This document shows positions 764 to 14,547 of a stretch of 53,926 nt of DNA, in pieces. Source of the DNA: an uncultured Verrucomicrobiota bacterium (lineage in GTDB: Bacteria > Verrucomicrobiota > Verrucomicrobiia > Limisphaerales > J093). The DNA lies in contig CAYPUR010000003.1 in assembly GCA_964413865.1 (NCBI GenBank), positions 1-53,926 of the forward strand. Direction: 5' to 3'. Both the position numbers and the translations under genes were made by a program. The first letter of the stretch is position 1; each line of letters starts with the position of its first letter. The notes under the pieces were generated by a model that had not been told where the DNA came from, made no database searches, and saw only the letters and a program-made list of their open reading frames with translations.

Positions 764-1864
764 ATGGCAACTATTGATTTCGGCGGCACACGGGAACAGG
801 TCATCACGCGCAAGGAATTCCCGATGGCCAAGGCGCGCAAGGTCCTCAAGAACGAGGTCATCGCCATCATCGGGTACGGCGTCCAGGGCCCGGCCCAATC
901 GCTCAACCTGCGCGACAACGGCTTCAATGTCATCGTCGGCCAGGCCAGCCAGTTCAAGCGCGACTGGGACCGCGCCATCCAGGACGGATGGAAACCGGGC
1001 AAGACGCTCTTCGAGATCGACGAGGCGGTCCGCCGGGCCACGATTGTCCAGTTCCTGGTCTCCGACGCCGCCCAGCGCGCCGTCTGGCCCGTCATCAAGG
1101 CCAACCTCAAACCGGGCGACGCCCTCTATTTCTCACACGGATTCTCGATTGCCTACAGGAAGCAGACCGGCGTCGTGCCTCCCGCCGACGTCGACGTCAT
1201 CATGGTCGCCCCGAAGGGATCCGGCACCTCGGTGCGCCGCAACTTCCTGACCGGCGCCGGCATCAACTCGAGCTTCGCCGTCGAGCAGGACGCCACTGGG
1301 CGCGCCGAGGAGCGCTGCCTGGCGATCGGGATCGGGATCGGATCGGGCTACCTCTTCCCCACCACGTTCGAACACGAGGTCTACAGCGACCTGACCGGCG
1401 AGCGCGGCGTGCTCATGGGCGCCCTGGCCGGCATCATGGAAGCCCAGTACGATGTGCTGCGCGCCAACGGCCACACGCCGAGCGAGGCCTTCAACGAAAC
1501 GGTCGAGGAACTGACCCAGAGCCTGATCCGGCTGGTCGACGAAAACGGCATGGACTGGATGTACTCGAACTGCTCGGCCACCGCCCAGCGGGGCGCGCTC
1601 GATTGGAAGCCGCGGTTCAGAAAGGCGGTCCTGCCGGTGTTCAAGGAGCTTTATCAGCGTGTCAAGACCGGCAAGGAATGCGCCCGAGTGCTCAAGGCGT
1701 GCGGCGCCCCCAATTACCAGGCCCAACTGCAGAAGGAACTGCGCGCCATTCGCGATTCCGAGATGTGGCAGGCCGGCGCCGCCGTGCGCGCTCTCCGGCC
1801 CAAGGAATCCGCCCGCGCCATCGCCAAAGGCACCAAGGGCATCTCGGGCCGCGCAGCCAATTGA
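764..1864 (+). CDS. ilvC: Ketol-acid reductoisomerase
   Basis: Rossmann motif VIAIIGYGVQGPAQSLNLRDNGFNV and the rest of the protein match KARI. The track start at 722 is GTG. In-frame ATGs occur at 734 and 764, and I chose 764 (MATIDFGG). Confidence 0.9.
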   Translation: MATIDFGGTREQVITRKEFPMAKARKVLKNEVIAIIGYGVQGPAQSLNLRDNGFNVIVGQASQFKRDWDRAIQDGWKPGKTLFEIDEAVRRATIVQFLVSDAAQRAVWPVIKANLKPGDALYFSHGFSIAYRKQTGVVPPADVDVIMVAPKGSGTSVRRNFLTGAGINSSFAVEQDATGRAEERCLAIGIGIGSGYLFPTTFEHEVYSDLTGERGVLMGALAGIMEAQYDVLRANGHTPSEAFNETVEELTQSLIRLVDENGMDWMYSNCSATAQRGALDWKPRFRKAVLPVFKELYQRVKTGKECARVLKACGAPNYQAQLQKELRAIRDSEMWQAGAAVRALRPKESARAIAKGTKGISGRAAN

Positions 1865-1872
1865 CACCGGTA

Positions 1873-1923
1873 CATTCCAACAAGACATTCCGTTGAGCGT
1901 TGAACGTTGAACGTTGAACGTTC
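1873..1923 (+). repeat. Left ~50-bp direct repeat of the island (includes heptamer array A, 1891-1923)
   Basis: cattccaacaagacattccgttgagcgttgaacgttgaacgttgaacgttc aligns by hand with 7543-7592 in the same orientation, with a few mismatches and one 1-nt gap. Confidence 0.8.
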
Positions 1924-1935
1924 TGAGTAAAACGT

Positions 1936-2144
1936 CGATGTTCCGGGGCGGTTGTTGCGCGGTTTGAATCGAGGGTTCAACGCTAAAACGGGGAGAGGAA
2001 ACGCTCAACGCTCAACGTTCAACGCTCAACGTTCAGAGCATGACGGCGATGTTCCGGGGCGGTTGTTGCGCCGTTTGAATCGAGGGTTCAACGCTGAAAA
2101 GGGGGAGAGGAAACGCTCAACGCTCAACCTTCAGAGTATGGCGG
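1936..2144. repeat. Two tandem units (~111 bp and ~98 bp), each ending in an inverted heptamer array (2000-2038 and 2112-2136)
   Basis: Both units begin cgatgttccggggcggttgttgcgcSgtttgaatcgagggttcaacgct...ggagaggaaacgctcaacgctcaac. Unit 2 lacks two heptamers. Confidence 0.85.
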
Positions 2145-2494
2145 CGCGCGGTGCGAAGGCTGGCGGCGAAGATGCGGATCAGTTCTTCCGTTTCGACAAG
2201 GACGTCGTCGAGCGCGGGAGGCGAGTCCACCAGAGGAACGCGCTGGGTGAGTCGCAGCCAGCGGCGAGATTCCTTCAGTTCTTTCAGACAGATGCTCAGT
2301 TTGTGGATGAAATCGTTGCGTGATTCAGCGGCTTGGGCTTCACCATGGTTCGGCAAGGCCGAAGTGCCAGAACGTAGCAACTGGCTGGCGACGTGATTTC
2401 CGGCTCGCGTTTGCGGCAGCCTCTCCGCCAGGCGTATGACCTGCGCCGCATAATCCAACAGCCGCTCTTCCAGGTCGTATTCCTTCGATGTCAT
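2117..2494 (-). CDS. Four-helix-bundle protein (23S rRNA IVS protein / Avd-like family)
   Basis: ATG at 2494, 125 aa. The segment SQLLRSGTSALPNHGEAQAAESRNDFIHKLSICLKELKESRRWLRL matches the four-helix-bundle (PF05635/TIGR02436-type) signature from memory. The last codons and stop lie inside a heptamer array. Confidence 0.85.
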   Translation of the reverse strand: MTSKEYDLEERLLDYAAQVIRLAERLPQTRAGNHVASQLLRSGTSALPNHGEAQAAESRNDFIHKLSICLKELKESRRWLRLTQRVPLVDSPPALDDVLVETEELIRIFAASLRTARRHTLKVER

Positions 2495-2550
2495 TTCTTC
2501 CTCCTTGCCGTGAACATGCCCAACCTCCGCTCCATTTTCAACCCAACCTT

Positions 2551-2622
2551 TGAGCGCTGAGCGTTAAACGTTGAGCGTTGAACGTTGAGCGCTGAGCGTT
2601 GAACGTTGAACGTTGAGCGTTC
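2551..2622 (+). repeat. Heptamer array D, ~10 units of TGARCGT
   Basis: Read directly: tgagcgc tgagcgt taaacgt tgagcgt tgaacgt tgagcgc tgagcgt tgaacgt tgaacgt tgagcgt tc. Confidence 0.9.
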
Positions 2623-12143: not shown

Positions 12144-13069
12144 AACCCTACGTTTTCATCGACTATGCGACCCAAGGGTACATCGCCCTTGTGGGTGTTC
12201 TGATTCTGCTGTTTCACAACCAGACCGTGCCATGCTGGCCGTGCCTCGTGGCGGTTCACGCGGCCTGCCTGGTCCTGGTGCATCTCCTCATCCAGTCGCA
12301 CGCCCGGTGGCGGTCCAACCGGTTCCTTGACTTCCTGCGGCATTTCTATCCGGTCCTGCTCTACACTGGATTCTATCGGGAGACGGGGATGCTCAACCAC
12401 ATGTTCGCGGGCGACTACCTGGATGTCCACTTCATCCGCCTCGAGGAAAGTCTCTTCGGCCTGCAGCCCTGCCTCTGGCTGATGGACACCTTCCCCTGCC
12501 TCGCGGTGAGCGAAGTGCTCTATGCCTCCTACTTCTCCTATTACATTATGATCTTCGGCGTGGGGCTTGCCCTCTTCGTCCGCCAGCGCCGGCAGTTCCA
12601 CCACTATGTGTCCGTGGTGTCGTTTGTCTTCTACCTTTGCTACCTGACCTACATCTGCCTTCCGGTCATGGGGCCGCGCGCCTTCTTCCGCGAGATCGAC
12701 GGGTTCCGGCTGCCCGATGCGATCCAGGCATCCGCGGGCCCGTTGGCGTACCCGGACGCCGTGACGCACGGCGTCTTCTTCAACATCATGGCCTGGATCT
12801 ACCGGAACTTCGAGAGCCCCGGCGCCGCCTTCCCGAGCAGCCACGTCGCGATCGCTCTCTGCACGGTCTGGTTCTCATTCCGCTACCTGCCGCGCATTCG
12901 ATGGCTGCATCTGGTTGTGGGGCTCCTCCTGTGTCTTTCAACCGTCTATTGCCGCTATCACTACGTGGTCGATGTCGTCGCCGGCGCCCTCACCGTCGCC
13001 ATCCTCCTCCCCCTGGCCAATCGCCTCTACCATCGGTTTCAAGCGCGCGAGGAAGCGATCGGCGAGTGA
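12140..13069 (+). CDS. PAP2-superfamily membrane protein (IPC/sphingomyelin-synthase-like PAP2_C type)
   Basis: Multi-TM protein with AFPSSHV and CRYHYVVDVVAG (H-H-D type catalytic motifs). The proposed TTG start at 12140 overlaps the SDR stop (TTGA). The start is uncertain. Confidence 0.65.
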   Translation: MKPYVFIDYATQGYIALVGVLILLFHNQTVPCWPCLVAVHAACLVLVHLLIQSHARWRSNRFLDFLRHFYPVLLYTGFYRETGMLNHMFAGDYLDVHFIRLEESLFGLQPCLWLMDTFPCLAVSEVLYASYFSYYIMIFGVGLALFVRQRRQFHHYVSVVSFVFYLCYLTYICLPVMGPRAFFREIDGFRLPDAIQASAGPLAYPDAVTHGVFFNIMAWIYRNFESPGAAFPSSHVAIALCTVWFSFRYLPRIRWLHLVVGLLLCLSTVYCRYHYVVDVVAGALTVAILLPLANRLYHRFQAREEAIGE

Positions 13070-13143
13070 GGCCCGCGGATGGGGGCCTCCAGCGCGCCCG
13101 TCTCGATCGCTGCATGCGTTTGAACCCGGGCCTCGCGCCCGCC

Positions 13144-13380
13144 TACTTCAGCACGGCGCGGACGTCGCGCAGAACCGCCTCGGGATTGGGGAACTGGCCG
13201 GTGGCCTTCTTCGAGTAGACGTTGCGTCCGTTCACACTCACCTCGAAGACGCCGCCCGAGGAGGGGACGAGCTTGAGCGACCCGATCTTGAACTTGAGAC
13301 CCAGCAGTTGCGCCGCCAGACCGACGGCATGGGGTTCGTAGTTTCAGGCCGCGCAGTACTCGATGACGATTTCCGGTTGC
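13144..13380 (-). CDS. SelW/Rdx-family selenoprotein (78 codons) with in-frame TGA = Sec at codon 13
   Basis: My translation: MQPEIVIEYCAA[TGA]NYEPHAVGLAAQLLGLKFKIGSLKLVPSSGGVFEVSVNGRNVYSKKATGQFPNPEAVLRDVRAVLK, then TAG. The CxxU motif is at the position of the Rdx CxxC/U redox centre. The gene is absent from the ORF track because of the TGA at 13342-13344. Confidence 0.75.
13310..13326 (-). promoter_or_regulatory. Candidate bacterial SECIS hairpin
   Basis: On the minus strand the hairpin is gccgtc-GGUCU-ggcggc (6 bp including one G-U pair). It starts 15 nt after the UGA and has G residues in the apical loop. Confidence 0.4.
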
Positions 13381-13493
13381 ATTGTGTATGGGCCAAACAT
13401 GGCCGACAAAACTCGACTCACTGACTGCCGATTCTGATCGTGGCTGAGTCTAGACGCGAGAACCGTCCGGGTCAAGGCGGCCCTCCCTGCTCC

Positions 13494-13657
13494 CAGCAGT
13501 TCTCACTTTGCTTGGAGGGCCCCGACGCCGGGTGAGGGCACCCGGCCTACAGCATCGAAGAATGCAGCGGTTGCAGGCCGGGTCGGGCCTGCCTGTCGCC
13601 AGGCAGGCCCGACCCGGCGCTCTGAGCGTTCTCAAAATGAGAAATGCCGCCCTGCAC
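13494..13657. repeat. Repeat family A, full copy with extra internal palindrome
   Basis: It aligns with 25896-26031. It carries the additional perfect palindrome gccgggtcgggcctgcctg-tcgc-caggcaggcccgacccggc. Confidence 0.85.
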
Positions 13658-13743
13658 CCGCGCGGCTGGCGGTTGGCCTTTTCACCTTGATCGCCTCATG
13701 GAGAGGCAACATCCTTCGCATCTCTGAGATGCGAGGCGAACAC

Positions 13744-14547
13744 ATGAAGCCGTCCCGCCAGGCAGTCGTCACCGTGGCTTCCGGGCAGCACGCCGAGATT
13801 CTGGACCGAACGTTCACCAGTTTTGGCCAGAATCCTTTTCTCGAGCTGCACGCCTTCATCCTGGGCGAACGCCTGCCCCAGCGGCAGTTGCCGGGCATTG
13901 TCTACCATCTTCGCGAGCCGGATCCGACGTACCAGCACTTTCTGCGGGAGATCTATTACCGCCGCTTTGCGCTCATCGATGAGCTGGAGTGCGATTACGC
14001 GCTGATCGTGGACAACCATGACGTCCTGTGCCTGCAGCCAATCCCCGAGCTTCCGGCTCTGCTGCGTGGGGCAGCCGTCGGGGCCTGTGTGGAGCATGCC
14101 GGGGGCAAGTACATCGCGGGTCAGGGATACACCAGTTCCTACGTCAACGCGGGAGTGACATTCTGGAACATTCAGGCGTCGCGGCGCATTCGCGCGGACG
14201 TCGTCGCGCGCGGTCGGGCGCGTTTTCGGAGCATCGAAGACCAGCTCACTCTCAACGAAGTGGTCCACACGCGCTACTATGACGACCTGATCCTGCTTCC
14301 GTGCCAGTACAACTACCGGCCTTGCCTGGCTCCAACACGGGTTCGCGGGTGGCCCACGGTAGATCACCTCGATGGCGTTCGCATCTATCACAATGTCTAC
14401 TCGCTCGATGCCGCGCGGAAGCTCATCCCGGTGGCCGCCAGGGCCGCGCTCGAGACCTTGGCGCCCGACGGGCAGGCGCTGACCCCCTTCCAGCGGTTCA
14501 AGCGGCGGGTGCGGCACCGGCTCTTCTACCGGCACCGGGTCGGGTGA
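13744..14547 (+). CDS. Glycosyltransferase family 8-like protein
   Basis: The segment YALIVDNHDVLCL ... YVNAGVTFWNI ... EDQLTLNEV is collinear with the GT8 core, with the DxD replaced by DNHD. ATG candidates are at 13729 and 13744. Confidence 0.55.
   Translation: MKPSRQAVVTVASGQHAEILDRTFTSFGQNPFLELHAFILGERLPQRQLPGIVYHLREPDPTYQHFLREIYYRRFALIDELECDYALIVDNHDVLCLQPIPELPALLRGAAVGACVEHAGGKYIAGQGYTSSYVNAGVTFWNIQASRRIRADVVARGRARFRSIEDQLTLNEVVHTRYYDDLILLPCQYNYRPCLAPTRVRGWPTVDHLDGVRIYHNVYSLDAARKLIPVAARAALETLAPDGQALTPFQRFKRRVRHRLFYRHRVG

Follow-up and report, generated by a model that had tools for sequence, protein, structure and literature searches.

The minus-strand frame at 13382..13143 of the window, that is, of the whole 53,926-nucleotide stretch of DNA analysed here, is very probably a functional gene, monocistronic, encoding a SelW-like selenoprotein of 79 residues, in which a UGA codon would be decoded as selenocysteine (Sec13) through a SECIS hairpin. 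Judged by its sequence, the gene most likely encodes a genuine CxxU selenoprotein that acts as a thiol/selenol oxidoreductase. Support in silico extends to the family, the fold, a conserved TGA, selection on the hairpin at the RNA level and the presence of the Sec machinery.

The coding sequence (13143..13382, minus strand) consists of an ATG at 13382-13380, 11 sense codons, a TGA at 13346-13344, 66 sense codons and a TAG at 13145-13143. Read through, with the TGA given as U, it translates as MQPEIVIEYCAA-U-NYEPHAVGLAAQLLGLKFKIGSLKLVPSSGGVFEVSVNGRNVYSKKATGQFPNPEAVLRDVRAVLK, 79 residues followed by the TAG, and the assignment draws on this translation, on profile matches, on orthologues and on an AlphaFold2 model. 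The TGA is the only one in the frame. An earlier note, made from the letters of the window, had described a minus-strand frame with an internal TGA; that frame is present and its translation is identical, whereas the boundaries given for it, 13380 and 13144, were off by 2 and 1 nt and, if taken literally, lead to a wrong reading frame. The start codon (13380..13382, minus strand) was placed on the basis of homologues: of 47 distinct coding sequences from Verrucomicrobiota, 44 have methionine at this column, and the sequence upstream of it is not kept as coding. A TTG at 13475, which would open a frame of 110 codons, was considered as an alternative start and rejected, since both same-genus relatives carry an in-frame TGA in that stretch, 17 codons upstream of the ATG, and the methionine at 13382 aligns across homologues. 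In the list of open reading frames for the window, the selenoprotein frame is represented by a single 43-aa piece ending at the TGA, and past the TGA the list holds no in-frame piece of at least 40 aa. Hence, a standard gene caller would miss the gene, just as the earlier note had said of ORF callers.

The protein obtained by reading through the TGA belongs to the Rdx family. It matched Pfam Rdx (PF10262) with an E-value of 8.3e-19 and 68 bits against a cut-off of 22.6; the match extended over residues 5-75, thus spanning the TGA, and covered profile positions 2-73 of 74. The NCBIfam model TIGR02174 (CXXU_selWTH) was matched at 59.1 bits, with a cut-off of 34.2, and a six-frame search of the genome returned the locus at 59.9 bits with one TGA inside the match. 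The score against the NCBIfam equivalog NF041051 (SelTWH_Campy), 81.2 bits, lies below its cut-off of 88, and the protein was consequently filed only in the broader subfamily and not under the Campylobacter equivalog. Seven solved proteins were matched by sequence, among them 2fa8, 2oka, 2obk, 2ojl, 3dex and 2p0g. In the best two of these matches, the segment IEYCAA-U-NY is aligned to IRYCTQCNW (2fa8) and ITYCTQCQW (2oka), and the TGA therefore falls on the second cysteine of the CxxC motif. The first position of the putative CxxU motif is the TGC codon of Cys10 (13353..13355, minus strand), which corresponds to the first cysteine of CTQC in 2fa8; both Cys10 and position 13 are invariant in an alignment of 57 sequences. 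The TGA at 13344..13346 (minus strand) would accordingly stand for Sec13, the second CxxU position. These results bear out two earlier proposals, namely, that the sequence on both flanks of the TGA belongs to the Rdx/SelW family, now backed by Pfam, TIGR02174, the alignment to solved proteins and Foldseek, and that the TGA occupies the second position of CxxC/CxxU, as seen from IEYCAAU against IRYCTQC of 2fa8.

The structure was modelled with AlphaFold2 from 57 homologues (pLDDT 89.8, pTM 0.78). In the model, strand beta-1 comprises residues 4-10 and helix alpha-1 residues 16-27, so C10-A-A-U13 is predicted to lie at the strand-helix junction. The predicted fold is the thioredoxin-like beta-alpha-beta-beta-beta-alpha one. 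A Foldseek comparison of the model with 2fa8 gave a TM-score of 0.96 and an rmsd of 0.9, and the top 21 PDB matches were all bacterial SelW-related proteins (TM 0.88-0.96, rmsd about 1 angstrom), followed in rank by mouse SelW (2npb) and thioredoxins.

The TGA is conserved among homologues. A search of 40 related genomes besides the window's own yielded 15 matches to the selenoprotein. All 12 near-full-length matches that cover the Sec column, each from a related Verrucomicrobiota genome, have exactly one TGA there (13 when the window's own is counted); the other three comprise one match that starts past the Sec column and two contig-end fragments with one TGA each somewhere along their length. 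Two of these 12 are orthologues from genomes of the same genus, 97% and 94% identical, with the same TGA. A wider scan with one genome per species gave 80 loci, 79 of them full-length, from Verrucomicrobiota, Fictibacillus and other Bacillaceae, Desulfuromonadales, Planctomycetota, Alphaproteobacteria and others, at least five phyla in total. The CxxU position is TGA in 79/79 of the full-length loci and a cysteine codon in none, which answers the earlier question of whether homologues have Cys or Sec at this column: the homologous loci have TGA, and the solved CxxC proteins have their second cysteine. The N-terminal peptide M-x-x-E/x-I-x-I-E-Y-C is also kept while its codons vary synonymously, and I7, Y9 and C10 do not vary in any of the Verrucomicrobiota copies. 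Such conservation at the protein level, accompanied by synonymous change, rules out both a pseudogene and a downstream start.

These data bear directly on two simpler readings of the locus. It might be a pseudogene, a former CxxC Rdx gene whose TGT or TGC became TGA and which no longer gives a full-length protein; only one substitution separates TGC from TGA, and ordinary ORF logic calls no gene here. A decayed gene would, however, be hard to reconcile with a TGA shared by all 79 full-length loci from several phyla, with a clade in which no Cys-codon homologue came to light, with flanks that are both conserved as amino acids under synonymous variation, and with a covarying hairpin at SECIS distance. 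We consider this reading very improbable and, as far as comparative sequence data can tell, effectively refuted already by conservation. It is equally improbable that translation truly stops at the TGA and that the cell makes a shorter Rdx fragment from a downstream start, a reading that public annotations follow with calls of 52-58 aa for homologues, even though most database homologues are called as proteins of 43-62 aa that cover only 50-73% of the query (for instance P0004, a 58-aa NCBI 'SelT/SelW/SelH family protein'). In the window, the first in-frame ATG, GTG or TTG past the TGA would give 32 aa only. Moreover, because the 12 codons before the TGA encode beta-1 and the first redox cysteine, a product begun past the TGA would miss both, and with them the whole CxxU centre. 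The earlier note had named N-terminal codons lying outside the family as a finding that would overturn the selenoprotein reading; instead, the peptide that these 12 codons encode is kept in every homologue and makes up beta-1 in the model.

Two further observations were made on the same set of sequences. The gene's own stop codon is TGA in 32 of the 80 coding sequences (79 homologues and that of the window), so within each of these mRNAs of about 240 nt UGA would be read once as Sec and once as stop, about 200 nt apart. A distant, longer homologue of 131 aa (P0037; GCA_040960765.1, JBFOMR010000578.1, 2001-2396 of the fetched locus) has GGC (Gly) at the Sec column, in the context IEYCEMG-SY, and no hairpin was found at that column. 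It appears, from its sequence, to be an Rdx protein in which the second redox position has been lost.

We then return to the selenoprotein reading and to the RNA element on which it depends. The candidate SECIS (13312..13328, minus strand) is a hairpin GCCGUC/GGUCU/GGCGGC with a 6-bp stem and a loop at 13322-13318, assigned from the minimum free energy fold, covariation and frozen synonymous sites. Its first base follows the UGA after a gap of exactly 15 nt, and the predicted minimum free energy fold contains it. The folding energy of the region is no better than that of shuffled sequences (z = -0.62 over 62 nt; an equally good fold was reached by 50 of 200 shuffles) and, in a genome with 64.5% G+C, such stability is no evidence for the element. 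Covariation was analysed in an ungapped alignment of 74 distinct sequences anchored at the UGA. The covariation score was 0.348 against 0.135 in shuffles, a value reached by 0/500 of them. Across the 74 sequences, 86% of the cells of the five inner pairs are paired, and sliding the 3' partners by 1-3 columns as a control lowered pairing to 22-61%. Changes on both sides were seen in four of the six pairs, for example C-G to U-A or G-C, C-G to G-C, and U-G to C-G or G-C; the sixth, outermost pair is held in only 23 of the 74 sequences, that of the window included. The loop reads GGUCU, AGUCU or AGUUU in 64/74, and alignment positions G26 and U27 are at least 90% conserved.

The codons that underlie the hairpin provide a second line of evidence. 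Among 47 distinct Verrucomicrobiota coding sequences, codons 19-21 and 23 show zero synonymous variation (GCC in 47/47, GTC in 46/46, GGT in 38/38 and GCG in 35/35), against a codon entropy of 1.6-1.8 bits at other four-fold degenerate codons of the same gene. On this comparison of sequences, we regard the frozen synonymous sites as direct evidence of RNA-level selection exactly where a SECIS should be. An Rfam scan of 13000-13600 at E<=10 returned no SECIS family and two matches, both at chance level. As a criterion for a bacterial SECIS we used a stem-loop just 3' of the UGA whose small apical loop includes a G (PMC1088965), supplemented by covariation; the locus has a stem of 5-6 bp, a GGUCU loop, a distance of 15 nt past the UGA, and covariation. 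The 6-bp hairpin with a GGUCU loop, 15 nt downstream and compatible in geometry with a SECIS, had been proposed beforehand; the distance of 15 nt proved exact, and covariation now supports it. The locus also offers a clean, covariation-supported SECIS inside a coding sequence, in which codon choice and the amino acids A-V-G-L-A alike are set by the RNA structure.

The machinery for Sec insertion was sought in the 91%-complete assembly, since its absence had been put forward as grounds for abandoning the selenoprotein reading, and all four components were found: tRNA-Sec (62.6 bits; anticodon tca according to ARAGORN), SelB (285.9 bits, 306.3 summed), SelA (481 bits) and SelD (374 bits). SelD itself has one in-frame TGA, at SCAGU-ASKLG, the known catalytic Cys/Sec site. 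The selD gene of this genome (C78:2905-3825, minus strand; 1390-2586, minus strand, of the fetched locus) is thus a selenoprotein gene in its own right, with the TGA at MSSCAG-U-ASKLG. Past this TGA there is a hairpin with a 9-bp stem and a GGUCC-type loop about 27 nt downstream; given this type of loop, one SelB could plausibly read both the selD and the SelW-like elements. A Sec-type molybdopterin oxidoreductase (FdhA) and selU were not detected in the 91%-complete assembly, and SelD and the SelW-like protein are the only selenoproteins identified in the genome. Two broader screens were discarded. A genome-wide heuristic for a TGA plus a hairpin produced 1,253 candidates, almost all of them wrong-frame noise at 64.5% G+C, and was unusable; a search for Sec/Cys paralogues, in which TGA-bridged frames of high GC3 were compared by BLAST with the genome's own ORFs, gave 338 matches, mostly shadow frames of paralogues, and would have missed Rdx and SelD regardless.

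The inventory of tRNAs also bears on the possibility that this organism has a changed code in which TGA means Trp or Gly (NCBI tables 4 and 25), so that position 13 would not be Sec. Two database homologues (P0005, P0034) are indeed recorded with W at this position, and the record of P0005 matches its own DNA only if TGA is read as W. Nevertheless, tRNA-Sec is the sole tRNA of the genome with a UCA anticodon, tRNA-Trp having CCA; SelA, SelB and the other conserved proteins searched contain no internal TGA; the 32 of 80 coding sequences noted above terminate at TGA; and the family motif would be lost if its second redox position were Trp or Gly. Reassignment is, in our estimate, the least credible of the alternatives, even below a pseudogene or a downstream start, and decoding of the UGA as Sec is retained as the working interpretation.

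From these results, a route from gene to activity may be outlined. In SelB-dependent recoding, Sec is delivered to a UGA after SelB has bound a hairpin in the mRNA. We infer that, during translation of the SelW-like mRNA, the UGA at 13346-13344 would not be read as a stop; SelB, together with GTP and Sec-tRNA(Sec), would bind the hairpin at 13328-13312 and insert Sec at position 13. This would create the redox centre C10-A-A-U13 at the beta-1/alpha-1 junction of a thioredoxin-like fold. The selenolate could then attack an oxidised substrate (a disulfide or sulfenic acid, or perhaps a selenium species), whereupon a selenenylsulfide with Cys10 would form and be reduced again by the cellular thiol system. 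The cycle between U13 and C10 is suggested by the motif and the fold.

As for its surroundings, the gene stands alone on the minus strand, between a plus-strand gene ending at 13069 and a plus-strand gene starting at 13687. A putative promoter, TTGACC-17 nt-TAGACT (13447..13475, minus strand), precedes the ATG by about 65 nt; 12950-13750 contains no other sigma-70-like match, with 0.1 expected there, and neither hexamer varies in the two relatives of the same genus. The site falls within a stretch of about 140 nt of upstream sequence conserved in both relatives, with divergence further upstream. No Shine-Dalgarno motif is visible before the ATG at 13382, and no intrinsic terminator was found past the stop of the selenoprotein gene, where there is no U-tract. 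About 28 nt past the TAG (TAGGCGGGCGCGAGGCCCGGGTTCAAAC; window 13115-13145, minus strand) are nearly invariant in three genomes of the genus and are followed by divergence. A remnant of tRNA-Sec downstream of the gene, as might be expected from the arrangement in relatives, was looked for and dismissed, as no tRNA and no Rfam match were found there. In the upstream intergenic region (13494-13657), beyond the promoter-like site, there are about 22 additional palindromic nt (CCTGCCTGGCGACAGGCAGGCC) that are missing from the 97%-identical relative.

In related genomes, the SelW-like gene is found embedded among the sel genes. A tRNA-Sec is found directly downstream of it in 20 of 46 Verrucomicrobiota loci, with selD next in 13. 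On a complete Verrucomicrobiae chromosome (OY969763.1, about 2,714,000-2,719,100), the order Rdx-selC-selD-selA-selB occupies one strand over about 5 kb. In Bacillaceae, selD is divergent from Rdx in 10/10 loci, and in Fictibacillus selA follows Rdx within about 100 nt in both genomes checked. The genome of the window shows no such linkage: Rdx is on contig C3, tRNA-Sec on C255 and selD on C78, and the arrangement in relatives therefore serves as context for the finding and does not belong to it. For fdhA, a cluster of the Sec-decoding genes with the selenoprotein gene has been published (PMC1794560), and a SelW-like gene in that role would be a variant of this pattern. Since the gene is built into the sel cluster in relatives, one could imagine the SelW-like clade not as a generic redox protein but as a dedicated partner of the Sec pathway, for example reducing selenium or passing it on to SelD, or protecting the Sec of SelD, an idea that we consider unlikely. 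In a more conservative version, the SelW-like protein, not FdhA, may be the passenger selenoprotein that travels with a mobile Sec-decoding cassette and justifies it in the phyla concerned. Under either version, the sel linkage would have been lost in the window's genome. The recurrent embedding of this clade in sel clusters is the only lead from the present analysis that could bear on the function of bacterial SelW-like proteins.

The main value of the locus lies in annotation, as the gene is invisible to stop-to-stop calling. In public databases, most homologues from the clade are stubs of 43-62 aa that start past the TGA, or carry W in place of U (P0005, P0034). Such records amount to a systematic mis-annotation of the SelW-like clade. 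As the gene escapes calling and its homologues are recorded as stubs or with W, the selenoproteomes of Verrucomicrobiota MAGs are probably under-counted. The biology of the SelW-like family is unchanged by the finding.

It remains to compare the locus with known systems. For the RNA element, the reference is the E. coli fdhF SECIS, which we take to be the model SelB-binding element, with a short G+C-rich stem, a GGUC-type apical loop and a fixed short distance 3' of the UGA. The frame in which the loop is read, GGU CUG, is the same in both; the GGUCU loop of the present locus has its first G 25 nt away from the U of the UGA, about one codon further from the UGA than in fdhF, and the 6-bp stem shows no evident bulged U. 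For the protein, mouse SelW (2npb) shares the family, the CxxU motif and the fold class (Foldseek E 1.5e-4, TM 0.68). In contrast, the eukaryotic SECIS is a structurally different element located in the 3'UTR, the identity to the window protein is only about 25%, and the partner interactions of eukaryotic SelW should not be assumed for it. The Cys-type bacterial Rdx structures, namely, Agrobacterium Atu0228 (2fa8) and those from Pseudomonas (2oka, 2obk), Bordetella (2ojl), Streptomyces (3dex) and Vibrio (2p0g), are closer: they show 30-40% identity over the full length and TM-scores of 0.88-0.96, with the redox motif in the same place. They differ in having CxxC and about 20-25 more residues at the C-terminus, whereas the window protein has CxxU and would need the Sec machinery.

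The closest counterparts are the bacterial SelW-like selenoproteins with CxxU and a downstream SECIS, which Zhang, Fomenko and Gladyshev catalogued in 2005 from the Sargasso Sea, where they formed the most abundant selenoprotein family with 48 genes (PMC1088965). They were catalogued again by Zhang et al. 2006, according to whom few Cys homologues of this family occur in organisms that use Sec (PMC1794560). No specific mention of members from Verrucomicrobia was found in PMC1088965 or PMC1794560, the name having 0 occurrences in the latter. The present gene resembles those in the catalogue in its length of about 75-80 residues, its thioredoxin-like fold, its CxxU motif with Sec in the second position, a SECIS just past the UGA with a G in a small apical loop, and the scarcity or lack of Cys homologues within Sec users. 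The gene itself is new and had not been called, while bacterial members of the SelW-like family were already known about twenty years ago; nothing about the new member is different in kind, and it is best described as a Verrucomicrobiota representative of that family which ORF logic had missed.
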